UHGV virus genome: UHGV-0094578
Reading direction: 5' to 3' (one strand)
DNA from: a virus
Length of the DNA stretch: 31,822 nucleotides
How positions within the stretch are numbered: the first letter of the stretch is position 1; each line of letters begins with the position of its first letter. The notes beneath the pieces were generated by a model. That model was not told where the DNA came from. It ran no database searches and saw only the letters and a list, made by a program, of their open reading frames with translations. This document shows, piece after piece, positions 41-31,772 of this stretch. A program made the position numbers and the translations under genes.

Positions 41-50
41 GCAGTATTTC
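41..50. other. candidate attL core (GCAGTATTTC)
   Basis: Exact 10-mer shared with 27080-27089, abutting the int stop codon (50-52). Flanks do not match, so the core would be short. Confidence 0.3.
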
Positions 51-1090
51 TAAGCTGTCGCGACATCTTTGCGACATTTTAAGGGGTTAAGTCGCACGGC
101 ATCTTCAAGGTGGCTTGGGGCGAAATGGGCATAACGCATTGTCATAGTGATGTCAGCGTGGCCGAGAATTTTTTGCAGAACCAGAATGTTTCCGCCGTTC
201 ATCATAAAGTGGCTGGCAAATGTATGGCGCAGTACATGGGTAAGCTGGCCGGAGGGGAGTTCAATGCCTGCACGTTCCAGAGCAGAGCGGAAAGCGTTGT
301 AGCAGGGCTTGGGGAACAGAGCGCCTTTTGTTTCAGGTAATTCGGACAGAAGTTCATCATCAAGGGGAATTGTTCTGTTGCGCTTCCCTTTGGTTTTGAC
401 GAACGTGACTTTACCCCCGGCGATCTGGGAGCTTTTCAGCGTTGCCGCCTCATTCCACCTTGCGCCGGTAGCAAGGCAGATTTTGACAACTAATTCTAGG
501 TATTTAACTTTACTTCGTTTGCATTCCAGTAAAAGCCGATCAATTTCTTCGGTAGTGAGGAAAGCCATTTCGATTTCATCAGTACGATACTGTCTGACGT
601 TTTCTAGTGGGTTGGGTGCTGACCATTCACCAATCCGTTTCAGCTCGTTGAACATAGCCAGGAAGTAAGCATGTTCAAGGTTCATAGTTTTCGGGGAAAC
701 CTTAGATACTCTGTTGGTACGGGCATAATGCCCATCCAGCCTTTTAGCGCGGTAGGCTGTGAACAACTGGGCATTAAATTCTGTAGCCAGCGGGAATCCC
801 ATGCATTCCGCCGCCCAGGTCATAGCATTTTTACGCTTTTCGCCATTGCTCAAAGCTACGCCGTGGCGTTCATACCACATTGTTATCAGATCTATTAAAG
901 TTCGCTTGTCCTTCCCTTCACCCAGCCACGGAGCTGCGTCTACTTTCTGAAGCGTATGGTTTTCGAATGCCAGGGCTTCCCCTTTCGTGGCAAATTTTTT
1001 ACGTATACGCTTCCCGTTCTTGCCATTACTGCGGTTGACGGTGTAGAAGTCGGCGATCCATTCGCCTGTAGGAAGTTTACGAACGCTCAT
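50..1090 (-). CDS. int: phage integrase, tyrosine recombinase (P2/186 Int-like)
   Basis: 346 aa; HVLRHTFAS (HxxR box) and C-terminal MRYAHF tyrosine region; sits at the element edge next to the repressor gene. Confidence 0.9.
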   Translation of the reverse strand: MSVRKLPTGEWIADFYTVNRSNGKNGKRIRKKFATKGEALAFENHTLQKVDAAPWLGEGKDKRTLIDLITMWYERHGVALSNGEKRKNAMTWAAECMGFPLATEFNAQLFTAYRAKRLDGHYARTNRVSKVSPKTMNLEHAYFLAMFNELKRIGEWSAPNPLENVRQYRTDEIEMAFLTTEEIDRLLLECKRSKVKYLELVVKICLATGARWNEAATLKSSQIAGGKVTFVKTKGKRNRTIPLDDELLSELPETKGALFPKPCYNAFRSALERAGIELPSGQLTHVLRHTFASHFMMNGGNILVLQKILGHADITMTMRYAHFAPSHLEDAVRLNPLKCRKDVATA

Positions 1091-3184: not shown

Positions 3185-3585
3185 TGACCATTATTTCCGT
3201 TGAGGGTAAATCGTTGGGGGCTGAACTGGCTGTGTGGGGTGTCCCGCATAACTACGCTGTAGCGTTTACAGAGAAAAGCACCAGTAAAAATGGCCGCATC
3301 GCTTTGCATCCGTTCTTCTTCAATGACACCGAGCACATGACGAATCCGCGTCACTGGTTGGCGATCAATGCCGCTTTCTGGTGCTGTGTGTATCGCGAAG
3401 CGGAAAGCAAAGAAGCCCAGATAGAAGCGCTGGCGGGGATTCGTGCGATTTTCTATACAGCCGGGGCGCTGGGAGTTGGCGAGATAAAAGCGCTGATCCA
3501 GGAGTGGTGGCGGACAACCTATGAACTGCACCTGATTCCGGTACCGAACTACTCAGCTGCCACAGTACACCCCACTTTTCACTAA
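3184..3585 (+). CDS. hypothetical early protein (133 aa)
   Basis: ATGA start/stop overlap with the preceding gene; phage-like composition. Confidence 0.65.
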   Translation: MTIISVEGKSLGAELAVWGVPHNYAVAFTEKSTSKNGRIALHPFFFNDTEHMTNPRHWLAINAAFWCCVYREAESKEAQIEALAGIRAIFYTAGALGVGEIKALIQEWWRTTYELHLIPVPNYSAATVHPTFH

Positions 3586-3652
3586 TTAACCGCCTGAATT
3601 TTTGGGCCATGTTTCAAGTGGCCGGGGATTCTTTTGCCTTAAGGAAACCAAA

Positions 3653-3886
3653 ATGCATATGACACGTCAGGATTTACCCGCAACAAAATCAGTCACTGAC
3701 CTGCTGGCAATGCTCACCAAAGCCACGCAGGAAGGTAAAGCCGCTGCTGCTGATTTGTGTTCCACCCGTCTGAATAAGCTGGCCACCCATGCAGCCAATG
3801 AAGGTTTAAGCGCAACGGAAATCGTTGAGTTGATCCGCGAAGAAGCCGCGGCGATTTGCAGCAAAGGCGGTGCGGCATGGCAATAA
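3653..3886 (+). CDS. hypothetical early protein (77 aa)
   Basis: ATG 3653 after AAGGAAACC; its stop overlaps the dam start. Confidence 0.5.
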   Translation: MHMTRQDLPATKSVTDLLAMLTKATQEGKAAAADLCSTRLNKLATHAANEGLSATEIVELIREEAAAICSKGGAAWQ

Positions 3887-4737
3887 AAACTCCGCTTAAA
3901 TGGGTGGGCAGCAAAGCCCGCCTTATGCCTAAGCTGCGTCCGCACCTTCCAGAAGGTAAACGCCTGGTTGAACCGTTCGCAGGTTCCTGCGCTGTCATGA
4001 TGAATACGGATTATGACGAGTATCTGATCGCAGATGTGAATCCTGATCTGGTTAATCTTTATAAGGCGATGGCGTATCACACTGATGCGCTGCTGAATGA
4101 GCTGGAGATCCTGTTTACTGCCGGTTCGTTAGGTGATGAAGAAAGCCGTGCCATTTTCTATTACGCAGTGCGTGATGCTTTCAATCTTTCTAGTGGTAAG
4201 GTCGGTTCTGAATCTGTTGAAAATGCTGCGCGTTTCCTGTACCTGAATCGCCACTGCTTCAATGGCCTGTGCCGGTATAATCGCCGAGGCCAGTTCAACG
4301 TCCCGTTCGGTAAGTATAAAAAGCCTTATTTTCCCGCTGATGAAATCCGTGCCTTTGCTGAAAAAGCGAAACGCGCAACGTTCATTACTGCCCACTATTC
4401 AGAAACGCTCGATTTGGTTCGGGACGGGAATGACGTTGTTTACTGTGATCCGCCTTATCTGACTGAAAGCGACAATTTCACCGCTTACCATGAGCGCGGT
4501 TTTTCGCACATCGTCCAGGGGAGGCTGGCGCGTAAATTGCGCCGTCTGGCCAGAAAAGGTGTGCCGGTTGTGGCCTCTAATGCAGATCTGGAAATGGTGC
4601 ATTACCTGTACGCCGGATTTGAAGCCGTTCGCATTAATGCCCCACGTAGTGTTGGTGCCGCAGCTGCAAGCCAGAAAGTTGCCGCAGAGTTAATTCTGAA
4701 GTCGCCGCTTGATTCTATAGCGATGGCCTGCGCATGA
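3877..4737 (+). CDS. dam: DNA adenine methyltransferase (Dam family, N6-adenine)
   Basis: DPPY catalytic motif (VVYCDPPYL) and N-terminal PLKWVGSKARL SAM-binding region. ATG 3877 with AAGGCGG Shine-Dalgarno (track start 3856 is TTG). Confidence 0.9.
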   Translation: MAIKTPLKWVGSKARLMPKLRPHLPEGKRLVEPFAGSCAVMMNTDYDEYLIADVNPDLVNLYKAMAYHTDALLNELEILFTAGSLGDEESRAIFYYAVRDAFNLSSGKVGSESVENAARFLYLNRHCFNGLCRYNRRGQFNVPFGKYKKPYFPADEIRAFAEKAKRATFITAHYSETLDLVRDGNDVVYCDPPYLTESDNFTAYHERGFSHIVQGRLARKLRRLARKGVPVVASNADLEMVHYLYAGFEAVRINAPRSVGAAAASQKVAAELILKSPLDSIAMACA

Positions 4738-6755
4738 CTCCTGTCGCCAATGGCCAACATCACGCCGTCGATACCTGGCGGCGTGAAACGTTCGCACCGG
4801 GTACACCTACAGACGCCACGATCACTGAGCGCCGCCTGTGGGCGGTTAACCCGCAGGATTACGAATGGTGCTCACAGTACCTTCATGAGATACCCGACTG
4901 GTTAGCCGGGTATTTTGGCCGTCGTTACGAAAAGCTGTTTGCTGGTCGTGACGGGCGTTGTCGTGCCAATACATTCCTGCGCCAGACTATCGGCGGGAGT
5001 GTATTGCCACGTCTGCGCAAAGTGGCTGCGCGTTACTCGCTGGCCGCTGACGCTGCTGATCTTACTTTTGGTAAGTCGCTGGAGCGCTTGCCGTCACTAG
5101 ACCGTCCTGATCTTAAAAAACTGGCTGGCCAGGTATCTGGCTGGATTTCCCAGTCACTTTATGACTTCACCGAACAGTTTGACTCCAGCACTGACGACGC
5201 CAGAGAGCTGCATCGCCGCACCTTGGAATCATACCGCCATCTTTGCGCGGGTTGCCTGATGCTGAATAACCAGCCGCCGTACTGGGCTGAACATGAGGCC
5301 AATGAAGGTCAACTGGAAATGCGTAAGGCGGAATCCGGGATACTGCGCATGATGGCGCCGGAATGGTGGTACCTACGTCTTAAACGTGCGCGTGATATGC
5401 AGCGCGAACATATGGCCATCGCGGTGGGACAGGTACAAAAAGCGGCCAGCGCTTATGTATCCCGCAAAACACTGGACGAATGGATAGACCAGAAAAAGCG
5501 GAATCTGGAGTTCTTTAAAAAGTTTGATCTGCTGAATGATGAGGGGCTGCGCATTGCACTGGACAGCATGGTGCACCGCAGCGTTGCAAATCCGGCGATC
5601 CGTCGATGTGAACTAATGGTAAGAATGCGAGGGTTTGAAGATATGGCCAATGAAGAAGGGCTGGCCGGTGAGTTTTACACCATCACCGCGCCATCACGTT
5701 TCCACGCAGTGCACAGCAAAGGTGGCTTTGTATCGCAATGGGATGGATGTACACCGCAGGATACCCAGCGCTATTTATGCGGCGTATGGGCAAAAGCACG
5801 CGCAGCGATCTCGCGTGCGGGTATTCATGTATTTGGGTTTCGGGTTGTTGAGCCACACCATGACGGGACACCGCACTGGCATATGTTGCTTTTTATGCGT
5901 CTGCAGGACGTGGACACGGTACGCGATATTCTTTGCTATCACGCCAGAATTACCGATTCTGAGGAACTGCAATCTGAAAAGGCGCTTAAGGCACGTTTTC
6001 ACGTTGAAGCTATCGATCCCGACAAAGGTTCAGCCACGGGCTACATCGCGAAATACATTTCAAAAAATATTGATGGTTTTGCGTTGGATGGTGAGCAGGA
6101 CGAAGAAACCGGCGAAAACCTGCGTGATATGGCTAAGTCCGTTTCTGCATGGGCTTCACGCTGGCGCATTCGTCAGTTTCAGCAGATTGGTGGTGCGCCG
6201 GTAACCGTCTGGCGTGAGCTGCGTCGGTTGCGGGATCTGGTGCTGACAGATCGCAGAATGGATGCGGTTCTGGCCGCTGCTGATGTTGGCGATTGGGCTG
6301 CATACACCCAAGCACAGGGTGGCGCACTGATTGCCCGCCGTGATCTGGTTGTTCGTCTGGCCTATGAAATTACGGAACAGGGCAACGAGTACGCAGAGGA
6401 CGTGCAGCGCGTACAGGGGGTTTATTCTCCTTTGGTTCCTGATTCGGAAGTTTGCACCCGTCTGGTTAAGTGGCAAAAGGTTGCGAAGTTGGCCGAAGCG
6501 CCAGCGGAGGCGGGGTTTTCTGGCGGCAACGCCGCCCCTTGGAGTTCTGTCAATAACTGTACGGAGGGGGGAATCCTCAGACGGTTAAAACTGGAATTAT
6601 GCAGCCGGGGTTTTAACGGTTCTAATGAAGAAATAGCCATTCTCTTACGGGGTAGTGGTTTGATGTTTGGCCAAGGGGGACTGGTTTACCGTAATGGGTG
6701 GCTTAAAGAGATTCAAAACGAGCCATTAAACGAGTTATGGCCGGGGTGGGTCTAG
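4734..6755 (+). CDS. A: replication initiation endonuclease, rolling-circle type (P2 gpA / 186 A family)
   Basis: 673 aa; HUH motif PHWHMLLF and tyrosine motif YIAKYISK; ATGA overlap with dam. Confidence 0.9.
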   Translation: MTPVANGQHHAVDTWRRETFAPGTPTDATITERRLWAVNPQDYEWCSQYLHEIPDWLAGYFGRRYEKLFAGRDGRCRANTFLRQTIGGSVLPRLRKVAARYSLAADAADLTFGKSLERLPSLDRPDLKKLAGQVSGWISQSLYDFTEQFDSSTDDARELHRRTLESYRHLCAGCLMLNNQPPYWAEHEANEGQLEMRKAESGILRMMAPEWWYLRLKRARDMQREHMAIAVGQVQKAASAYVSRKTLDEWIDQKKRNLEFFKKFDLLNDEGLRIALDSMVHRSVANPAIRRCELMVRMRGFEDMANEEGLAGEFYTITAPSRFHAVHSKGGFVSQWDGCTPQDTQRYLCGVWAKARAAISRAGIHVFGFRVVEPHHDGTPHWHMLLFMRLQDVDTVRDILCYHARITDSEELQSEKALKARFHVEAIDPDKGSATGYIAKYISKNIDGFALDGEQDEETGENLRDMAKSVSAWASRWRIRQFQQIGGAPVTVWRELRRLRDLVLTDRRMDAVLAAADVGDWAAYTQAQGGALIARRDLVVRLAYEITEQGNEYAEDVQRVQGVYSPLVPDSEVCTRLVKWQKVAKLAEAPAEAGFSGGNAAPWSSVNNCTEGGILRRLKLELCSRGFNGSNEEIAILLRGSGLMFGQGGLVYRNGWLKEIQNEPLNELWPGWV

Positions 6756-6769
6756 CAGGGTAAATATGT

Positions 6770-6785
6770 GAAATGCATGCATTTC
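6770..6785. promoter_or_regulatory. perfect 16-bp palindrome GAAATGCATGCATTTC
   Basis: Seen directly, 15 bp downstream of the A stop; no U-tract follows, so more operator-like than terminator-like. Confidence 0.3.
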
Positions 6786-6837
6786 TCAGTAGATGGAAGG
6801 AAATTAAATTTCACTATTCGTGCTTTACGGTGTACGG

Positions 6838-6859
6838 TATACTGGATACTTATCCAGTC
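6838..6859 (+). promoter_or_regulatory. SOS-box-like operator overlapping -10-like hexamers
   Basis: TACTGGATACTTATCCAGTC (6840-6859) fits the LexA consensus TACTGT-N8-ACAGTA at 15 of 20 positions with invariant CTG/CAG and an AT-rich spacer. TATACT at 6838-6843 overlaps it. Lies 22 bp upstream of the 6881 ATG. Confidence 0.4.
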
Positions 6860-6880
6860 ACTATTGCTTGTGGGGGCTAA

Positions 6881-7087
6881 ATGGATCTTTTGGAGGCGTC
6901 GGCACAGCTGGAACGCATTGAGTTATTAGCTAAAATTGCCCATGATTACGAAAGTAACCAGAGAGAAAAAACAATCGCTTTGGCCTGGATTGGAGAACTT
7001 GCGGAAGAGGTTCACAAAATGGTTAGAAAGGAAGGGAAAAGCCCTCATTCTGGGGGCTTTTTAGGCAGCGGGAGTCACTTTCAGTAA
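6881..7087 (+). CDS. small hypothetical protein (68 aa), possibly SOS-regulated (position of 186 tum)
   Basis: ATG 6881 with GGGGG Shine-Dalgarno; sits between A and the cos-proximal region, where 186 carries LexA-controlled tum. No sequence-level identification. Confidence 0.5.
   Translation: MDLLEASAQLERIELLAKIAHDYESNQREKTIALAWIGELAEEVHKMVRKEGKSPHSGGFLGSGSHFQ
7037..7061. terminator. candidate bidirectional terminator hairpin between convergent genes
   Basis: AAAAGCCC / GGGCTTTT stem (7037-7044, 7054-7061) around a 9-nt loop, A-run on one side and T-run on the other, at the 3' ends of the 68-aa ORF and ogr. Confidence 0.4.
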
Positions 7088-7330
7088 ATCTAATGCTACC
7101 TGGCGCTGAGCGGGAGAAAGTGCACTCAGTATTTTTTGCACCACCGCATCACCCGTTTTAGCGCTGGGGCTGAGAGTGTGGGAAAATGTCAGATTCATAA
7201 CAAATGTGTGGCCACATTCAACATCTGAACAGGCGCAGTAAATATCTGCAATTTGCCGATGCTTCCTGTTCGTTTTACGAATAACAGCCTTTGAGCCGCA
7301 TTCCGGGCATTCGATTTTCAGAACTCGCAT
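7061..7330 (-). CDS. ogr: Ogr/Delta-family zinc-finger late gene activator
   Basis: C-x2-C-x22-C-x4-C spacing (CPEC...CSDVEC followed by GHTF), the spacing I recall for P2 Ogr. Start ATG 7330 puts the finger at the N-terminus; an ATG at 7384 would be ATGA-coupled to the portal stop. Confidence 0.8.
   Translation of the reverse strand: MRVLKIECPECGSKAVIRKTNRKHRQIADIYCACSDVECGHTFVMNLTFSHTLSPSAKTGDAVVQKILSALSPAQRQVALDLLKVTPAA
7102..7125. other. candidate cos-like element
   Basis: GGCGCTGAGCGGGAGAAAGTGCAC resembles the P2 cohesive end as I recall it (GGCGAGGCGGGGAAAGCAC) and is followed by a T-run; lies downstream of the portal gene but inside the ogr 3' coding region. Confidence 0.25.
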
Positions 7331-7380
7331 ATTCCATGCTCCAGCTGTTAAATGAAGCATGGATTTTAGCCAGTTTCGCA

Positions 7381-8442
7381 TCATGCCGCACCTTTATCTA
7401 TTGATTCTATGTAACTTAAATCAAAGTTTAGGTGCAACCTTTCCGGTATTTCGGGATCGTTGTTAACGGCCAGCATGAAACGGCGCTGGATGGGGGCAAT
7501 TTCGCTTTTCTTATAAATGCGTTCAGCCTTTTCAACATCCCCCAGTCCGGCAGTGTTCTGCGGGACAATACCGGCGAGGCCGGCAGGGAAACGGTGCGCG
7601 TTCAGAATGTCCTGTGCGCTGATGTTCTTGATGTTGGCAAATTCATCCTTAGCAGAAATATCACCCATTTCAATGAACTTGATGGCGTCGCCGTCTCCGC
7701 CGGGAATGTTGACAAGGATGGTGGAGAAGTTCCCGATCCCTTTGCTGTCACGCAGCTGCTGTTCAATTTCTTCCTCCATTTCGTCCGTCATGCTGGGATC
7801 GCGGGTATAAAGAATTCCGCCTGTGTGCGCACCGTTGTGGTAGTAGCGGCGTCGGAAAATGACCGCTTCACTGTTAAGTAACGCGGAATGCACACCGCCG
7901 ATGTAGTCCGGCAGTCCATAGATATGCTGTTGCGGGTCATACATTTTGATAAAGATAATATCTTCTTCTGGCCATATCTGCGGTTCCCCTTCCTGTAACA
8001 CTACGTAGTCACCGGGCTTATCCAGGGCGTTATCTCTGACTTTGCGGCGGCGTATATACAGACCGGGTAAGGGTTCAAGTGCGATCACGTCTCCCCAGCC
8101 GTTACGAATTTTGGCAATCGCAATATCCCCAAAGGTTATATAGTTATACGCTGCCGCTTCCAGCTGGTCGTGAATAAGTCCGCCACCCAAGTAATCTGAA
8201 ACAATCATGTTTTTGCGGGCGTGAATGATGCCGCCGTGCTGACCGTTAAGATTAATCAGCTGTGCGAGTGCCAGCCGGTCAATCGGCTGGGTGAAGTGAT
8301 CGGCGGCATTGTCGTACCAGATATCACGGTAATCTGTGCCGGTAGTCAGAACCGGTTCAGGTTTGCCGAATGTGATAATGCTCATCTTTTTTGATTTGTC
8401 GCCGCGCTGGTCGCGCTTAACAAAGCGTTTCTTTTTACTCAT
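7381..8442 (-). CDS. portal protein (P2 gpQ-like)
   Basis: 353 aa, AAGGAAAGAGG Shine-Dalgarno; start overlaps the stop of the upstream large terminase gene; P2-type head-gene order. Confidence 0.85.
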   Translation of the reverse strand: MSKKKRFVKRDQRGDKSKKMSIITFGKPEPVLTTGTDYRDIWYDNAADHFTQPIDRLALAQLINLNGQHGGIIHARKNMIVSDYLGGGLIHDQLEAAAYNYITFGDIAIAKIRNGWGDVIALEPLPGLYIRRRKVRDNALDKPGDYVVLQEGEPQIWPEEDIIFIKMYDPQQHIYGLPDYIGGVHSALLNSEAVIFRRRYYHNGAHTGGILYTRDPSMTDEMEEEIEQQLRDSKGIGNFSTILVNIPGGDGDAIKFIEMGDISAKDEFANIKNISAQDILNAHRFPAGLAGIVPQNTAGLGDVEKAERIYKKSEIAPIQRRFMLAVNNDPEIPERLHLNFDLSYIESIDKGAA

Positions 8443-10214
8443 GCAGCCTCTTTCCTTACACCCCAGCGGGATTTAGGTTTGTTTTCATAGTTAAGGGGTT
8501 CGTTATGCAGACCGTGGGCAATCGCCCAGAACGCCTCCGCGTGGCCAGTATCCTGGCTGCGGTCAGCGACAAACGTCATGGCGTTGCCGCTTTGTGTGGT
8601 GGTTCGGCGCACAGACATAAAGCTGGCAGCGATCTCTTTCAGGTTTTTATCCCACTCAATACGCTGGCTTTCCACCACGTCTACCGCTTTCAGTACCAGT
8701 TGATTTTTGGTGTTCAGGTCGTAACGAATAGGGACGGCCACGCGCATGGCAAAATGCTGAATGTTGTCAAAAACACCCTGGCCAATGCCGGTAACGTCCA
8801 CACCCAGATAAGTGAAGTTGTATTTTTTAAACAATTGCTCGATCTGTTTTGCTTGGTACCGGAAGTTCATGCCTTTCCAGTAAATCACCTTCAGAACGCG
8901 GAATTTCTCCACGGCGAGTATCGGCGGCGCGATGATGACAAAACAGGACAAATCACCGCTGCGAGCCGGGTCAAAGCCACCCCATACCGACCTGCCACCA
9001 AATGGCCGCGCTGCATCAGGGTTGTGATCCTGCCAGGTGTCGATTTCAACACCGCAGGCTTCCAGATCGGAAAAGCTGAAAACGGAATCTTTGCTGTCAA
9101 CGAACACGCACATATAGAGCATGTTAAAAGTGGCGTCGTTGTAGCGATTGCGAAGTTTCTCGATGTTCGCCAGGTTGAAACCGCCTGCAATGGCATCTTC
9201 CATCGTAATGACGTAGCGCCATTGCCCATCCGGGCAGAGTCGCCCGCCGTCACGCATTTCGTTAAAGGACGGAAACTTAATGGCCGCACGTTTTTTACTG
9301 CCCTGTTTCCACTCATCGCCCGTCCAGAACGGGTAAGCCTGGTGCGTTTTTGCCGATGGCGTTGAAAAATAGGTGGTGCGCCACTTGTCATGTGTGGCCA
9401 TTGCACTGGCCACTTCGTTAAGTTTTGCAAAGTTTGGCACCCAGAAATATTCGTCACAGTACAGGTGGCCACTGTAGGACTGGGCGGTGTTTTTGTTGGT
9501 GGAGAGAAAACGCAGTTCTGCGCCGTTGCTTAAGCGGATCGGGTTGCCGGTTAGCGTAATACCGAAATACTGCTCTGCAATATTCACGATGTAAGACCGG
9601 AACACTTCAGCCTGTGCCTTTGACGCTGACAGAAAGATTTGCGGATCGCCGGTCATCACCGCATTTTCAAACGCTTCAAACGCAAAATACCAGGTCGCAC
9701 CGATCTGGCGGCTTTTCAGGATGTTCCTGACAAGCTGGCCAATGTTATTGCGCAGGTGTTTCTGATATTCAAAAAGATGTTCCTCAGCCCATGCGTCAAA
9801 GTCCTCCTGCGTCAGCGACGTAATATCGTTTTTCTTGTATTTCCGTTTGCTGCGTGGTTCGTCGTCATTGTTGCCCCGCGCAGCTGCTTGCCCGGAACTC
9901 TGACCGCTGGCCATTTTCTCTTTGTGTTTATTACTCTGCGCACGCAGTTTCGTGGCATGAGCAATGAGCATGTCCATTTCTTTCAGGTCGAGATCGGTTT
10001 TGTTATCGCGGCTGGCCAGCAGCTGGTAACGGCGTTCAATTGCTTCCTCTGTGCTTTCAAAACTGAGCAAATCCGCCCAGCTGTATTTCTCCGCCCAGTA
10101 GTAAATGATCCGCGCATTCGGCAGATTTAATTCAGATGCGATTTCCTTTGGCGTATAGCGGCGCAGATAAAGTGCGCGAACAACGCCTTTTAATTCTTCA
10201 GAGTATTTAGCCAT
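8439..10214 (-). CDS. terminase large (ATPase) subunit (P2 gpP-like)
   Basis: 591 aa, divergent from the scaffold/capsid operon exactly as P and O are in P2. Confidence 0.9.
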   Translation of the reverse strand: MAKYSEELKGVVRALYLRRYTPKEIASELNLPNARIIYYWAEKYSWADLLSFESTEEAIERRYQLLASRDNKTDLDLKEMDMLIAHATKLRAQSNKHKEKMASGQSSGQAAARGNNDDEPRSKRKYKKNDITSLTQEDFDAWAEEHLFEYQKHLRNNIGQLVRNILKSRQIGATWYFAFEAFENAVMTGDPQIFLSASKAQAEVFRSYIVNIAEQYFGITLTGNPIRLSNGAELRFLSTNKNTAQSYSGHLYCDEYFWVPNFAKLNEVASAMATHDKWRTTYFSTPSAKTHQAYPFWTGDEWKQGSKKRAAIKFPSFNEMRDGGRLCPDGQWRYVITMEDAIAGGFNLANIEKLRNRYNDATFNMLYMCVFVDSKDSVFSFSDLEACGVEIDTWQDHNPDAARPFGGRSVWGGFDPARSGDLSCFVIIAPPILAVEKFRVLKVIYWKGMNFRYQAKQIEQLFKKYNFTYLGVDVTGIGQGVFDNIQHFAMRVAVPIRYDLNTKNQLVLKAVDVVESQRIEWDKNLKEIAASFMSVRRTTTQSGNAMTFVADRSQDTGHAEAFWAIAHGLHNEPLNYENKPKSRWGVRKEAA

Positions 10215-10268
10215 GCGGATAATTATGCCGTGGCTGTGATGAAAAAACGGTGGTGTTAATTCGTGTCT

Positions 10269-10293
10269 GTTCGGTAAAGCGTTATAACCGAAC
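10269..10293. promoter_or_regulatory. dyad GTTCGGT-N11-ACCGAAC in the divergent late promoter region
   Basis: 7-bp perfect arms centred between the terminase start (10214) and scaffold start (10376); candidate late-activator binding site. It does not match the P2 TGT-N12-ACA pattern. Confidence 0.35.
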
Positions 10294-10375
10294 TGTTCAG
10301 AATAAAGCGTAATGCGGTGGCGGTTTTATTTGGCAATAATTGATTTGCAGCGTCAGGGAGTGGAACAGGGGGGAT

Positions 10376-11179
10376 ATGTCACATTTAAAAACTGACTGGC
10401 TGTGTGTTGCTACTGAAGGGGATACCGTTGATGGCAGGGTAATTAAACGGCAGTGGATCATTGATATGGGGGAAACCTATGACTATAGCCACTATGTCGC
10501 TTTAATCTGGCCAGAACATGAGGATGATTGCGGGAATTTTGGTGAAGTGCTGGAAGCCACCTGGAATGATGGTGAAGATGGACAGGCACGGTTATATGTC
10601 AGCCTTTGCCCGAATATGCGTCTGATTTTCGCAAATCATGAAGATCAGCTTTTGTTCTTCTCCATTGAGCCGGAAGATAACTGGCGCGGTAGCGGGCGTA
10701 CTTACCTGAAAGGGCTGGCGGTAACAGATACACCTGCCAGCGTTGGCACCACACGGCTGCGCTTTAGTAGTCGGCGCAATAAATTAACAAAGCAGGGATA
10801 TTACAGCTGTGTAATTTCCCGCGACGGAAAAATTAAACAGGAAGCAAGAATGAAGAACTGGCAGAAACTGTTTGGTATTAAGCCAAAGTTTGAAGATGAA
10901 ACGCCGCAGGATAATCTTGCTCCGGATGAAGATAAATTACAGGCGCTTGCCAATGTGGTGAACGATCTGGAAGCGCGAGTGGCGAAAATTGAAACTCAAC
11001 TGAATGACGTTCAGGGTGATATTGACACAATTGCTGAAGTGGTGGATACGCAGGAATTTGCGGCAATTCGCGATAATGCAAAAGAAATCGTAACCCGCTT
11101 TAACGAACTGGGTAATAAAAACACCCGTACACCGGGGCGTACTATAAAAGATAAAGCCGGGAAATTTAATTTCCTGTAA
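10376..11179 (+). CDS. capsid scaffolding protein (P2 gpO-like)
   Basis: ATG 10376 after a G-rich Shine-Dalgarno (track start 10340 is TTG); N-terminus ...ATEGDTVDGRVI... resembles the gpO N-terminus by recollection. Confidence 0.8.
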   Translation: MSHLKTDWLCVATEGDTVDGRVIKRQWIIDMGETYDYSHYVALIWPEHEDDCGNFGEVLEATWNDGEDGQARLYVSLCPNMRLIFANHEDQLLFFSIEPEDNWRGSGRTYLKGLAVTDTPASVGTTRLRFSSRRNKLTKQGYYSCVISRDGKIKQEARMKNWQKLFGIKPKFEDETPQDNLAPDEDKLQALANVVNDLEARVAKIETQLNDVQGDIDTIAEVVDTQEFAAIRDNAKEIVTRFNELGNKNTRTPGRTIKDKAGKFNFL

Positions 11180-27079: not shown

Positions 27080-27089
27080 GCAGTATTTC
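27080..27089. other. candidate attR core (GCAGTATTTC)
   Basis: Direct repeat of 41-50, 47 bp after the last tail gene, overlapping the 3' end of the flanking acetyltransferase gene. Confidence 0.3.
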
Positions 27090-27684
27090 ACTTGTTGTGT
27101 AGTTCAGAATAGTTAGAGGTGGAGTGCGTATCAAGCGGTAGTAGTTGTGCGGCTCTGCGGGTTATAAAGACACTATTGGCAGGAATGTTTCGGTTAACGA
27201 ATGACATAGCACCAATTGTCACGTTATCACCTATGGTCAGATCATCACCGATGATGCATGAATTTGCACCAATCTCGACATTGTCTCCGATCCTGATGGC
27301 TTTGATTCCTTCAACTGTTTTTAATCCAATGGTTGTGTTTTGTCGGATACGAACATTTTTGCCAATCACAGCCTGGGGACAAATGACTATTCCAACGAAA
27401 TGATAAATTTTGAATTTTTCCCCGATCTGAGCCCCCAATCCAATATCAGTATTGTATTTTGAAACAAGTCTCCGGTGGATTCTTCGTGCCCACTTAATAC
27501 TTGATTTCCCTCCCTGACAGTAAAGGCAATTCGCTATCCTCCACCAACACATGAATCTGTGTCCGGGTTGTCTCCAGCAACGTAGTATGATTCTCCTCCA
27601 GGAGAATTTTTTACTACTGTGCAGTATGTCCGCGCACAACAACTTCTTCATATCCTCATAATGAGACTTTTTGTTGTTACTCAT
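27088..27684 (-). CDS. hexapeptide-repeat acetyltransferase (serine O-acetyltransferase / WcaB-like fold)
   Basis: 198 aa; left-handed beta-helix repeats (IGDNVEIGANSCIIGDDLTIGDNVTIG); AGGGAG Shine-Dalgarno; AT-rich. Confidence 0.8.
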   Translation of the reverse strand: MSNNKKSHYEDMKKLLCADILHSSKKFSWRRIILRCWRQPGHRFMCWWRIANCLYCQGGKSSIKWARRIHRRLVSKYNTDIGLGAQIGEKFKIYHFVGIVICPQAVIGKNVRIRQNTTIGLKTVEGIKAIRIGDNVEIGANSCIIGDDLTIGDNVTIGAMSFVNRNIPANSVFITRRAAQLLPLDTHSTSNYSELHNK

Positions 27685-28956: not shown

Positions 28957-29254
28957 GCTGGTAAATGAGTGGTGATATTTATCATTGAATAAAATTACGT
29001 TATTTCAAATAACTAATTGTATTAATTACTAAATGCCTTTAAAAATATTGGGTTTTGTTTGCATTTGGTGCGGTTATAGTGGAAATGCAAACCATCATAT
29101 AAAGCCCGCGTAACCGAACGGGCTGTTCTACGTTTTTTTAATGAAATTATGTTATTGCTTCAGCTTCCTTGTGATTAGAAGGGATCAAAGACCACATTTC
29201 CTCATGATCCGACTGTGACCGTTTGGAAGTATACACCGGCGTGAACTTGTTTTT

Positions 29255-30139: not shown

Positions 30140-31171
30140 ATGTCAAAACGAATTGTATTCTTCAATCATAAAGGTGGTGTAAGTAAAACAACATCAGTTT
30201 ACAATCTTGGATGGATGCTAGCTAACCAGCATAGAGTCTTGGTTGTAGACGGCGACCCTCAATGTAATCTTTCAAGCTTAATTTTAGGGGATGGTTTCGA
30301 AGAATATTATACGAATCCATTAACCCAAAAGCAGAACTTGAAGGATGGCGTTGCAGTCGCTTTCAAAGGTAAACCACAACCAATAACACCTATTACTTGT
30401 GTATCACCTGATAGAACTGCTAATCTTTTTTTATTGCCTGGGCATGCAGATCTTTCTGCTTATGAAGCATCATTAACTTTTGCACAAACATCAGGAAATG
30501 CTTTAGCAACCTTACAAAACCTACCGGGAGCATTTTCGGAATTAATAAGGCTATGTGAAGAACGCTATAATATCGATTATACGCTTATTGATTTAAACCC
30601 GGGGTTAAGTTCAATCAATCAGAACCTTTTCTTAAGTGCAGATGCTTTCATCATACCAACAAATCCAGATCCATTTTCAATCATGGCTATTGATACATTA
30701 AAAGATGTCTTGCCACGATGGATGGAATGGAAACAAAATAATCTTGATTTTTTTGAAGACAGTGCATATCCACTGAGAAACTCGCAAACAAAATTTTTAG
30801 GTATGCTGATCCAGCGATTTAATATAAGGAAGGGAAGAGCGGCAAGACCGTATCGAGATAACATCGCGGAAATCAAGCGTAAGGTCGTCGAAGATCTTGT
30901 TCCTCGTTTGCAGACTGTAGGAATGGCATTAAATTTGAATCAATATCCTCAAGAATTGCTTGATAATAACTTTTGCTTGTCGGAGATACCTGATTTTCAG
31001 GGACTTTTACCAAAGTCTTATGCGGCTGAAGTGCCTGTTTTTGCCCTTCGTGATGAAGATATTAATGAGACCGGGCCAGTTTTTGAACAGATGGCTGCAA
31101 AAAGAGATATGTTTAAAGCTCAATTTGAAGAATTATCTGAAATAATACTTAGGACTCTTGAAAATGTCTAG
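30140..31171 (+). CDS. ParA/MinD-fold P-loop ATPase with C-terminal extension
   Basis: Deviant Walker A NHKGGVSKTT, Walker A' VLVVDGDPQCN, Walker B-like YTLIDLNPG; 343 aa; AT-rich. Confidence 0.8.
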   Translation: MSKRIVFFNHKGGVSKTTSVYNLGWMLANQHRVLVVDGDPQCNLSSLILGDGFEEYYTNPLTQKQNLKDGVAVAFKGKPQPITPITCVSPDRTANLFLLPGHADLSAYEASLTFAQTSGNALATLQNLPGAFSELIRLCEERYNIDYTLIDLNPGLSSINQNLFLSADAFIIPTNPDPFSIMAIDTLKDVLPRWMEWKQNNLDFFEDSAYPLRNSQTKFLGMLIQRFNIRKGRAARPYRDNIAEIKRKVVEDLVPRLQTVGMALNLNQYPQELLDNNFCLSEIPDFQGLLPKSYAAEVPVFALRDEDINETGPVFEQMAAKRDMFKAQFEELSEIILRTLENV

Positions 31172-31772
31172 AGCTCATATAATTTTCAAAAAAAATATTG
31201 AGGAGGCGAAGCAGCTAAACGCATTACATACATATTTGTCTAATAACATACAAGTGCCTATGTCACATGATGATATTCTGCGCGCGCAATTAGTTAACTG
31301 TGTAAGCGCTTTTGATAAACTCATTCATGATTTAATACTTGATGGATTGACAGATATGTATGTAGGTAAGAGACAGCAAACTCCTAAATTTTTAGGTGAA
31401 GTGTTGCCGTTAAATGTGTATTTTAAATTACAAAATGCAACTATGCCGCCACCGGAGTATCATTTTCGTGAAGCGATGCGAGCAAAACTTAAAACAATTT
31501 CTTATCAGGAACCTTCGAAAGTCGCTGAAGGCTTGGCTTATATATGGGATGAGGGGCAGAAATGGGTAAAAATAGCTCAAGTAATGGGTTCTAAAGATGA
31601 TTTAGTAAAAAAACAACTTAAACTTATAGCAGTAAGGCGAAATGCAATTGTGCATGAGGCTGATTTAGACCCTGTAACTCATCAAAAACTTAGTATTGAC
31701 TCAAGAATGGTTACTGATAGTTCAAATTTCTTGGAACAATGCGGCGATGCAATAGAAAGTTTGGTATCTTAA
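31164..31772 (+). CDS. hypothetical protein with HEPN-like R-x4-H motif (putative RNase effector)
   Basis: ATG 31164 overlaps the ParA-like stop (31169-31171) with AGGA Shine-Dalgarno; motif RNAIVH at residues 161-166 of the track ORF (DNA 31638-31655). Confidence 0.5.
   Translation: MSRAHIIFKKNIEEAKQLNALHTYLSNNIQVPMSHDDILRAQLVNCVSAFDKLIHDLILDGLTDMYVGKRQQTPKFLGEVLPLNVYFKLQNATMPPPEYHFREAMRAKLKTISYQEPSKVAEGLAYIWDEGQKWVKIAQVMGSKDDLVKKQLKLIAVRRNAIVHEADLDPVTHQKLSIDSRMVTDSSNFLEQCGDAIESLVS

Follow-up and report, generated by a model that had tools for sequence, protein, structure and literature searches.

The gene at positions 7061..7384 (minus strand) of the window, i.e., the whole 31,822-nt stretch of viral DNA (UHGV-0094578) analysed here, is best read as the late activator that is standard for its lineage: it would be expressed as the third cistron of a leftward unit P-Q-ogr, encoding terminase, portal and activator, and would drive its own synthesis through a conserved dyad. 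We give this reading a probability of about 0.65. The gene order, portal followed by ogr, is the rule for the HP1/K139/ESSI-2 branch and has been described before; the finding is real but ordinary. Gene, family and position are already known, from RefSeq annotation and from descriptions of K139 and Smhb1, and as a discovery they carry little weight. They do correct the expectation, based on P2 and 186, that ogr is found at the att/int end of the genome, and the analysis supplies a possible operator for the HP1-like branch, together with a candidate layout of its late promoters. These candidates could help to predict late regulons in Enterobacterales, for related prophages as well as for tail-gene clusters and possible satellites.

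The ogr product and its place on the prophage map

According to the list of open reading frames and their translations, 7061..7384 (-) encodes a protein of 107 aa that begins MMRNWLKSMLHLTAGAWNMRVLKIECPECGSKAVIRKTNRKHRQIADIYCACSDVECGHTFVMNL. Residues 25-71 match the Pfam family PF04606 (Ogr_Delta) with an E-value of 9.7e-20 and 70.7 bits, i.e., 44 bits above the gathering cutoff of 26.3 bits and covering profile positions 1-47 of 47, and the product also matches PHROG 603, 'transcriptional regulator' (3.4e-41). The zinc-ligand cysteines C26, C29, C52 and C57 are spaced C-x2-C-x22-C-x4-C, and no other cysteine column is invariant when the protein is aligned with P2 Ogr, 186 B and eight further homologues. 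The Ogr/Delta identity and the cysteine spacing given in a preliminary description of this DNA are confirmed by the Pfam match and the translation, and the product of 7061-7384 (-) is a genuine Ogr/Delta-type C4 zinc-finger protein. A fifth conserved cysteine, C50, is found within the motif YCAC.

In being a small C4 zinc-finger protein with this spacing, encoded by a P2-like phage, the window Ogr resembles P2 Ogr, 186 B and P4 Delta, and its size (89 or 107 aa, depending on the start codon) fits the range of about 70-110 aa found for Ogr/Delta proteins of P2-like phages and P4-like satellites. It is only 21-23% identical to P2 Ogr and 186 B, and differs from both in having a basic N-terminal extension of 18 residues and in its longer C-terminal tail. 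For P2 Ogr, zinc binding, late activation and contact with the C-terminal domain of the RNA polymerase alpha subunit are known (PMC3152322). Homologues of the window Ogr are present in 140 phage records; a sequence search of the PDB returned no solved structure for any relative, and no second Ogr-like gene was found among the window ORFs scanned.

The gene map of the window reads int-cI-cox-cII-...-dam-gpA | ogr-Q-P | O-N-M-L-R-S-sheath(DUF2586)-tube(HP1 Orf24)-holin-...-J-I-H and is colinear with the Kappa prophage, ESSI-2 and YenM324. It thereby has the order int-cI-cox-cII-...-rep | ogr-portal-terminase | scaffold-capsid-...-HP1-type tail, and the window is an HP1/K139/ESSI-2-type P2-like prophage (Peduoviridae). 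The int gene, at 50-1090, is located 6 kb from ogr. The leftward late unit starts with the gene for the terminase large subunit (gpP homologue, 8439..10214, -; Pfam Terminase_6N, Terminase_6C and Terminase_5), which is followed by the portal gene (gpQ homologue, 7381..8442, -; Pfam Phage_portal, E 9e-18) and by ogr. Facing it is a small convergent ORF (6881..7087, +; PHROG 698, E 9.5e-22), the last of the early rightward operon, which overlaps the 3' end of ogr by 27 nt and is present in most relatives. An inverted repeat AAAAGCCCTCA/TGGGGGCTTTT at 7037..7061 folds with -16.5 kcal/mol on the plus and -10.9 kcal/mol on the minus strand, in each case with a U-rich tract behind it, and forms a bidirectional intrinsic terminator common to ogr and the convergent ORF of the early operon. 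Between gpA and ogr, the conserved ORF and the terminator take up the 300 bp, which leaves little room for a cos site there.

The portal-ogr junction and the translated form

The coordinates bear out the claim that ogr is located directly 3' of the portal gene, on the same strand and at the end of the terminase-portal unit. The portal stop codon TGA (7383-7381) overlaps the ogr start codon ATG (7384-7382) as ATGA (7381..7384, -), and an equivalent junction, ATGA, TGATG, TTGA or TAATG, is found in every relative. Synonymous diversity falls in the last 12 codons of the portal gene, which contain the ogr ribosome-binding site AAGGTG. The overlap suggests that translation of ogr is coupled to that of the portal gene.

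Two start codons are available. The long form of 107 aa (7061..7384, -) is the one in the ORF list and its translation and the one matched by Pfam and PHROG, and the same 324-nt form is annotated by PGAP in E. coli. The alternative is a core ORF of 89 aa that starts at Met19 (MRVLKIECPEC..., 7061..7330, -). The 18 codons that separate the two starts (7331..7384, -) and specify a basic extension are probably translated. Their frame is open in 82/82 relatives for which the match reaches residue 1, with the consensus M-x-x-K/N-R-L-K-S-R-H-x-L-T-A-G-A/E-W-N, and leucine codons in it vary synonymously (TTA/TTG/CTG/CTT at codon 12, CTA/TTA at codon 6), while the LKS and L-T-A-G motifs are retained out to phages of Yersinia and Salmonella. 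The same 54 nt were also considered as a promoter; TTGACA/TTAACA is present, no -10 element is found at a usable spacing, and the segment was read as coding.

Several observations would nevertheless fit a reading in which only the 89-aa protein is made, the upstream 54 nt are a spacer and the ATGA overlap is incidental. Canonical Ogr, B and Delta begin 3-7 residues ahead of the first cysteine, an architecture that the Met19 form shares. Codon 19 is start-capable in 66/66 distinct relatives (ATG; GTG in L068/L069), a purine-rich GGAG-like element is located upstream of it in nearly all of them (GGAG at 7342-7339 ahead of the ATG at 7330 in the window), and the RefSeq annotation of phage ev239 uses the short form. 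The extension of the window has in addition three private, non-conservative substitutions (R5W, R9M and H10L). On the other hand every relative keeps an open frame with a start codon abutting the portal stop, and the synonymous leucine changes and the far-reaching conservation of the two motifs speak against this reading too. Furthermore, R9M (AGG>ATG) and H10L (CAT>CTT) complete the stem of an 11-bp RNA hairpin at 7333..7363 (-), which sets the window apart from the ESSI-2-like phages; it folds with -23 kcal/mol (z -4.2) as against -11.4 and -10.2 kcal/mol in relatives (z about 0) and is restricted to the window and an identical contig (L009). As the internal GGAG is buried in this hairpin, independent initiation at 7330 is disfavoured in the window, and we regard exclusive synthesis of the short form as rather unlikely.

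A candidate operator and the transcription of ogr

Midway between the divergent P and O genes is a perfect dyad, TTCGG-N13-CCGAA (10270..10292). It forms the centre of an imperfect palindrome of 51 bp (10256-10306) and has no second exact copy in the window. It is retained in ESSI-2, YenM324 and Kappa as well as in about 60 IMG/VR relatives, i.e., across phages of Escherichia, Cronobacter, Yersinia and Vibrio. Kappa has it as AATTCGGATAT-N6-ATATCCGAAATT between terminase and scaffold, in a single copy in the entire prophage, and Haemophilus phage HP1 has a related dyad, CGGATA-N8-TATCCG. On its left a -10-like CATAAT (10222..10227, -), matching the consensus at 5/6 positions, is separated from the dyad by 42 nt and from the terminase ATG by 7 nt, and may be part of the leftward late promoter; both spacings are invariant in ESSI-2, YenM324 and the loci of the window clade, and the first is 43 nt in Kappa. 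On its right a -10-like AATAAT (10335..10340, +), again 42 nt from the dyad, may belong to the rightward late promoter of O-N-M-L and the tail genes. Neither has a -35 element. A dyad upstream of late promoters that lack a -35, common to divergent P and O, is the layout of the Ogr family, and we propose TTCGG-N13-CCGAA as the operator of the Ogr subfamily to which the window protein belongs.

The proposed operator differs from that of P2 in sequence and probably in position. For P2 a single 'activator binding site; pO, pP promoters' is annotated, at a distance of 55-56 bp from each start site, and P2 Ogr binds inverted repeats near -55 and needs the RNA polymerase alpha subunit (PMC3152322). 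The P2 operator TGT-N12-ACA, which was considered here as well, has six exact matches in the window as compared to 8.4 expected, none of them in an intergenic late-control region. Because it is absent from the P-O region, we infer the DNA recognition of the window Ogr rather than transfer it from P2; membership of PF04606 stands, and the missing P2 operator lowers only the probability that the window protein shares the DNA specificity of P2 Ogr. Other operators of the family also deviate from that of P2, e.g., TGTTGT-N13-ACAACA in RSA1 and RSY1. If xATAAT is the -10 element, the centre of the dyad (TTCGG-N13/14-CCGAA) would be near -66, about 10 bp or one helical turn further from the start than the -55 of P2, and the terminase mRNA would be leaderless, which is unusual. 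With an alternative T-rich -10 the dyad would be placed at about -56 on the O side and about -49 on the P side. A further near-palindrome within a baseplate gene (19969-19995) has no such promoter layout downstream and is not convincing; a degenerate scan of the whole window gave 4 matches as compared to 1.9 in shuffled sequence. The accessible literature provided neither a late-promoter consensus for the HP1-like branch nor a transcript, start site or binding assay for the clade of the window.

Most likely, Ogr recognises the dyad and brings RNA polymerase to the promoters on either side of it, in the way that P2 Ogr acts through the alpha subunit at its single shared pP/pO site. The ogr gene is probably transcribed together with P and Q, as the third cistron of a leftward late mRNA, and its translation coupled to that of the portal gene. 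In activating the leftward P promoter Ogr would therefore drive its own synthesis, in a positive-feedback latch; in P2 and 186 an equivalent feedback would arise late in infection by read-through from the tail operon. In agreement with co-transcription, no terminator-like site was found on the minus strand between the terminase start and ogr. Convergent early transcription that stops at the shared terminator could delay the onset of the late phase. If the sole promoter of an activator gene depends on the activator itself, there is a start-up problem. The earliest Ogr molecules are probably due to basal activity of the leftward promoter, which replication would amplify, or to a weak promoter inside P or Q that escaped detection.

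P2, 186 and probably HP1 deal with the start-up problem by a separate promoter in the gap ahead of the activator gene, and the window ogr might likewise depend mainly on a promoter of its own that does not need Ogr and is located within the 3' portion of the portal gene (or in the terminase gene), as a functional counterpart of P2 Pogr or 186 pB. The place of ogr behind the portal gene would then be no more than a feature of the map, and co-transcription with P-Q a minor late supplement. Such a promoter would provide the start-up source that the activator requires. Promoters are annotated in the gaps of 65-80 nt that precede ogr in P2 and B in 186, the gap in HP1 contains a sigma-70-like candidate (TGTACA-16-TATAAT; 10/12 matches and a TG extension), and gaps of 45-75 nt are found between portal and ogr in F108, ev239, phi3 and UFJF_PfPro. 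In C5a an opposite-strand gene separates portal and ogr, and a separate ogr promoter is therefore likely to be ancestral. Two shallow minima of synonymous diversity in the portal gene, at codons 226-243 and 268-279, may also be counted in its favour. The window ogr, however, overlaps the portal gene by 4 nt, as do its closest relatives or in an equivalent way, and with this zero gap a promoter of the kind of P2 Pogr or 186 pB would not fit in. A sigma-70 consensus scan of 6600-10500 on both strands, crude as it is, gave no promoter-like site (at least 9/12 consensus matches) where 4.7 were expected. Inspection by eye of the last 120 nt of the portal gene gave nothing better than a TAGAAT that lacks a -35 and is private to the window (CAGAAT in relatives). 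From one subclade to another the 3' ends of the portal genes are highly divergent, apart from the ribosome-binding site that immediately precedes the ogr start, and in a synonymous-constraint scan of the portal gene, of modest power with 71 distinct sequences, only the last 12 codons stand out. We regard an embedded promoter as the main source of ogr as rather unlikely. Repression by CI, as of 186 pB, was considered too; the cI-cox region and the regions between P and O and upstream of ogr share 8-mers at chance level only.

The dyad also recurs away from portal genes. Xenorhabdus tail-gene clusters have it, together with the promoter layout, beside ogr homologues (CCGAA-N40-GCAATAAT in loci L131, L133, L136 and L137), and altogether 7 exact matches were found in 6/27 non-portal loci, where about 0.8 would be expected by chance (the rate in shuffled window sequence, 0.18 per 31.8 kb, scaled). 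One may speculate that the ESSI-2-like clade has lost the ogr promoter and makes Ogr only as a coupled cistron, in a pure feedback latch set off by the basal activity of one bidirectional and possibly leaderless control region with a non-P2 operator about one helical turn further upstream, and that activator and operator have been reused as a pair in Xenorhabdus tail clusters, in orphan Proteus loci beside lysis genes and in loci resembling P4-type satellites. This extended scenario is tentative; if true, it would set apart, among Ogr/Delta proteins, a group with a DNA specificity of its own. It is highly improbable that the gene encodes a zinc-ribbon protein with another role, such as Lar-like restriction alleviation or early/lysogeny regulation, as could be argued from a sub-threshold match to Pfam Lar_restr_allev (E 3.6e-4, 21.2 bits against a cutoff of 28.6, other zinc ribbons being weak too), the absence of the P2 operator, the identity of only 21% to P2 Ogr and the homologues found as orphan genes beside host genes in Proteus, since the Ogr_Delta match is full-length and far over its cutoff, the scanned ORFs hold no other Ogr-like gene, homologues are linked to late genes (tail or lysis genes, with the same dyad, in Xenorhabdus; lysis genes in Proteus), and others are located beside P4-alpha-like primases in satellite-like loci, where Delta-like late activators are expected.

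Position of ogr among P2-like phages

The portal-then-ogr order is found in 80/80 of the closest IMG/VR relatives and in 53/80 species-dereplicated enterobacterial genome loci, the latter from a scan built on an alignment of six closer sequences. It is also found in described phages of at least 10 genera (ESSI-2, YenM324, SW5, ev239, K139/Kappa, F108, HP1/HP2, phi3, C5a and UFJF_PfPro), and PGAP annotates the same gene at this position in 29 E. coli genomes. In K139 and Smhb1 the ogr homologue has been placed between portal and replication endonuclease (PMC8537503). In HP1, HP2 and phiCTX the cos site adjoins attP and does not follow the portal gene (PMC2771037); on the circular map of HP1-like phages, ogr and cos would have swapped places.

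In P2 and 186 the activator gene is the last of a late operon, on the same strand and directly after tail gene D, and shares the terminator of the operon; the notes on the two terminators read 'for ogr transcript and F operon' and 'pB and late promoter'. Birkeland et al. (1991) reportedly found that P2 ogr is transcribed together with the F operon, to which the RefSeq feature notes also point. Since P2 ogr and 186 B both end late operons, such a terminal place is the norm for the activators of this family. As stated in the preliminary description, both genes adjoin attP/int. That description had also implied that a late activator inside or at the end of the operon it activates would be unusual; the terminal position stands, whereas the oddity does not, because the position is shared by the whole branch, the activators of P2 and 186 are operon-terminal as well, and cos and ogr appear to have been exchanged. 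It had allowed that the position would be unremarkable if many related phages shared it along with a documented independent promoter; many relatives do share it, while no such promoter was found for this position in the accessible literature. What differs here is the operon, terminase-portal (P-Q) rather than the F operon with tail gene D, and the missing gap. P2, 186 and the HP1-like phages would thus follow one logic, with the activator as the terminal gene of a late operon.

The closest described relatives are the ESSI-2-like phages, whose Ogr proteins (Cronobacter phage ESSI-2 ADX32403.1, Escherichia phages ESSI2_ev015/040/129, E. coli WP_012602735.1) are 86-92% identical to that of the window and which share the flanks (gpA ... 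ogr-Q-P | O), the dyad and the 4-nt or an equivalent portal overlap. A 1.8-kb region comprising ogr and portal is 95% identical in nucleotide sequence between the window and the ESSI2_ev phages. The homologue of K139/Kappa, kp19, is 57% identical over the core; unlike the window Ogr it has no N-terminal extension, and it is separated from the portal gene by a small extra ORF (kp20) and a 70-nt gap. More distant are HP1, HP2 and F108 (orf17), where an ogr-like ORF with 38-41% identity to the window Ogr follows the portal gene at a distance of 45-80 nt and is closed by a terminator that faces the early region, i.e., the annotated T31 terminator just past the ORF in HP1 and an equivalent bidirectional terminator at the end of orf17 in F108.

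The expectation from P2 and 186 that the gene is located at the att/int end has left it unannotated in HP1, HP2, phi3 and KS14. In the HP1 record it is in addition split by a frameshift, and the ESSI-2 record labels it only 'hypothetical protein'.

Position of ogr behind the portal gene

The ogr gene (7061–7384, minus strand) encodes a 107-aa product that matches the Pfam Ogr_Delta profile over its whole length (E 9.7e-20, 70.7 bits; cutoff 26.3), with PHROG 603, "transcriptional regulator", as a second profile match. The zinc-finger pattern C-x2-C-x22-C-x4-C of the preliminary description is made up of C26, C29, C52, and C57, the only cysteine columns without variation when the protein is aligned with P2 Ogr, 186 B, and eight further homologues; a further conserved cysteine, Cys50 (YCAC), was absent from that description. 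Also correctly described was its location immediately behind the portal gene, with both genes on the minus strand; the TGA of portal gene Q (7381–8442; Pfam Phage_portal) overlaps the ATG of ogr in an ATGA. The large terminase gene P (8439–10214, minus strand) lies further upstream, completing an ogr-Q-P block.

The surrounding genes identify the window as a P2-like phage of the HP1/K139 type, colinear with the Kappa prophage. Between int (50–1090, minus strand) and gpA (4734–6755, plus strand) lie a CI-like repressor gene followed by cox-like, CII-like, and dam genes, and gpA is followed by a small conserved ORF (6881–7087, plus strand). Beyond the ogr-Q-P block, the plus strand carries, in order, O, N, M, L, R, S, sheath (DUF2586), tube (HP1 Orf24), holin, endolysin, tail chaperone, tape measure, J, I, fibre, HP1 ORF34, and spike. 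Among named phages, the nearest are Escherichia phages ESSI2_ev015/040/129 (95% nucleotide identity), Cronobacter phage ESSI-2, Yersinia phage vB_YenM_324, and Salmonella phages SW5/SI7. Past the last tail gene, a conserved ORF of PHROG 2154, function not assigned (27088–27684, minus strand), and an AT-rich stretch at 28980–29160 with a terminator-like hairpin near 29100 are candidate places for cos and attR. At the far right end, genes for a ParA/AAA_31-type ATPase (343 aa) and a RiboL-PSP HEPN-domain protein (204 aa) overlap (30140–31772, plus strand); they may be accessory or defence genes, within the prophage or flanking it.

The preliminary description implied that the placement of ogr is remarkable and proposed comparing it across P2-like prophages. 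The portal gene abuts ogr in all 80 of the IMG/VR relatives compared (the closest 80 of 288 matches), and the same order is found at 53 of 80 loci from species-dereplicated genomes of some 25 Enterobacterales genera. With the same orientation as the portal gene, an ogr homologue comes immediately after it in ESSI-2, YenM324, F108, SW5, ev239, and UFJF_PfPro, follows it with one small ORF intervening in Kappa/K139, and follows it unannotated in HP1, HP2, and Pseudomonas phi3. An opposite-strand gene is inserted between the two in Pseudoalteromonas C5a, and Burkholderia phages phiE202 and KS14 have the alternative placement of ogr in the early region. Among the complete genomes of E. coli, 29 of 5,426 carry the region; the eight E. 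coli entries listed annotate a "phage portal protein" and an "ogr/Delta-like zinc finger family protein", while the 324-nt ogr that overlaps the portal gene is the form called by PGAP in the record inspected. A homologue between the portal and replication endonuclease genes has been described for K139 and Smhb1 (PMC8537503). The idea of a remarkable placement is therefore not supported: a large phage lineage has this arrangement as its ordinary one, both annotated and published.

The contrast drawn with P2 and 186 holds for map position and fails for the oddity it implied. In the RefSeq records, P2 ogr comes right behind D, a tail gene of the same strand; its own promoter falls within a gap of 81 nt, and the annotation of its terminator reads "for ogr transcript and F operon". 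186 B has the identical arrangement: CI represses its promoter pB, and its terminator serves "pB and late promoter". There too, therefore, the activator is the last gene of the late operon that it switches on. In HP1-like phages cos adjoins attP and is not behind the portal gene (PMC2771037); judged from the maps, ogr and cos have effectively swapped slots on the circular map.

Ogr-like genes lack annotation in several reference phage records: HP1 (L005, NC_001697) 3427–3719, HP2 (L093) 1459–1755, phi3 (L008) 3438–3758, and KS14 (L007) 3474–3773, the L-numbers denoting compared loci. The HP1 record has this gene broken into two overlapping frames, with the first zinc knuckle in 3427–3597 and the second in 3492–3719, explained by a frameshift or else by an old error in sequencing; the HP2 ORF is intact (86 aa). 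Two contigs named "MAG: Bacillota bacterium" (L095, JAEWTL010000126.1) and "MAG: Bacillales bacterium" (L135, JAVBKE010000012.1) have portal-ogr proteins 92–97% and 63–66% identical to those of the enterobacterial prophage in the window, respectively; their labels are probably due to mis-binning or contamination.

Expression of ogr

The intergenic gap is zero in the ESSI-2 clade, whereas HP1 has a good promoter candidate between portal and ogr, and a stop/start junction (ATGA, TGATG, TTGA, or TAATG) is kept in every relative. An 18-codon extension (7331–7384) precedes an internal ATG at 7330 (Met19), which has GGAG ahead of it and opens the canonical core MRVLKIECPEC. The extension is probably translated, because in the relatives it has an open frame, is basic, and varies synonymously at Leu codons. 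As Met19 and its GGAG are also conserved, a long and a short isoform are possible. Synonymous diversity is lowered in the last 12 portal codons, consistent with a ribosome binding site for coupled translation of ogr, and the diversity scan gave no other footprint of constraint in the portal gene. Three changes in the extension (R5W, R9M, H10L) are private to the window and to contig L009, which is identical to it. Through two of these changes (AGG>ATG, CAT>CTT), an mRNA hairpin that covers the internal GGAG (7333–7363, minus strand) gains its full, perfect 11 bp, with a fold of -23 kcal/mol (z -4.2) compared to about -11 (z about 0) in the relatives; this hairpin might throttle internal initiation.

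No sigma-70-like site was found on either strand of 6600–10500, where dinucleotide shuffles gave 4.7 ± 2.2, which suggests that spurious promoters are depleted across the terminase-portal-ogr unit. Immediately past ogr, a hairpin (7037–7061) with a U-rich tail on either strand reads as a bidirectional terminator common to ogr and the convergent early operon. F108 has an equivalent at the end of orf17, and HP1 has the annotated T31 terminator just beyond its ogr-like ORF.

A candidate operator between P and O

The P2 operator TGT-N12-ACA has no exact copy between the divergent genes P and O. This region carries a perfect dyad, TTCGG-N13-CCGAA (10270–10292), which forms the centre of an imperfect palindrome of 51 bp and has no second exact copy in the window. 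The dyad is kept in ESSI-2, YenM324, Kappa, and about 60 IMG/VR relatives, and occurs only once in the entire Kappa prophage; HP1 has a related dyad, CGGATA-N8-TATCCG, at the corresponding place. Hexamers resembling a -10, neither with a -35, lie 42 nt from the dyad on the P side (CATAAT, 10227–10222, minus strand) and the O side (AATAAT, 10335–10340, plus strand), a spacing of 42 nt in ESSI-2 and YenM324 and 43 in Kappa. P2 likewise has a single annotated "activator binding site; pO, pP promoters", 55–56 bp from both transcription start sites. Ahead of terminase, the spacing CATAAT-N7-ATG (10212–10227, minus strand) does not vary among the window, ESSI-2, YenM324, and most of the IMG/VR relatives. 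With xATAAT as the -10, the centre of the dyad would be near -66 and a leaderless or nearly leaderless terminase mRNA is predicted, compared to a 23-nt leader in P2.

The most economical reading is that this Ogr subfamily uses the dyad as its operator. Two divergent late operons, P-Q-ogr and O to the tail genes, would be under its control and Ogr would boost its own synthesis through positive feedback; in this reading, the exact points where transcription starts and the origin of the first Ogr molecules are uncertain. The end-of-late-operon logic of the placement is that of P2 and 186, with the difference that here the activator shows no promoter of its own to prime late transcription. A second sequence resembling the dyad, the near-palindrome GTTTGGCTA-N9-TAGCCGAAC (19969–19995, plus strand), is located in the gene for the DUF2590 baseplate protein, close upstream of the J homologue. 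The -10 layout seen at the P and O promoters is missing there, and the resemblance may be due to chance.

The activator and dyad outside portal loci

Five Xenorhabdus loci (L131, L132, L133, L136, L137) have an ogr homologue (64–73% identity) upstream of HP1-type tail genes R-sheath-tube, with no portal gene found within 2.5 kb upstream of it; they look like tailocin-type clusters. In four, the dyad is followed by CAGAAT...TTTTATT...GCAATAAT, spaced as in the O-side promoter of the window; in L132 the dyad is present with a spacing one base shorter and a slightly different hexamer context. The five loci lend independent support to the dyad as operator.

Twelve Proteus loci from 11 species (L143–L152, L154, L155) have an ogr homologue and no portal gene upstream. 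In the three examined (L143, L144, L151) its neighbours are phage genes for holin and endolysin, on the opposite strand, and host genes (MFS transporter, dihydroxyacetone kinase); L144 has the dyad, 168 nt upstream of ogr. This homologue may be a domesticated regulator of a lysis cassette. The same Ogr subtype is found downstream of a P4-alpha-like DUF927/Toprim primase in Enterobacter (L153) and Kosakonia (L169), and probably also in L161 and L170. Such loci look like P4-type satellites with a Delta-like activator matched to helpers of the HP1/ESSI-2 type. In L169 ogr is followed by a reverse transcriptase gene, possibly a neighbouring defence gene.
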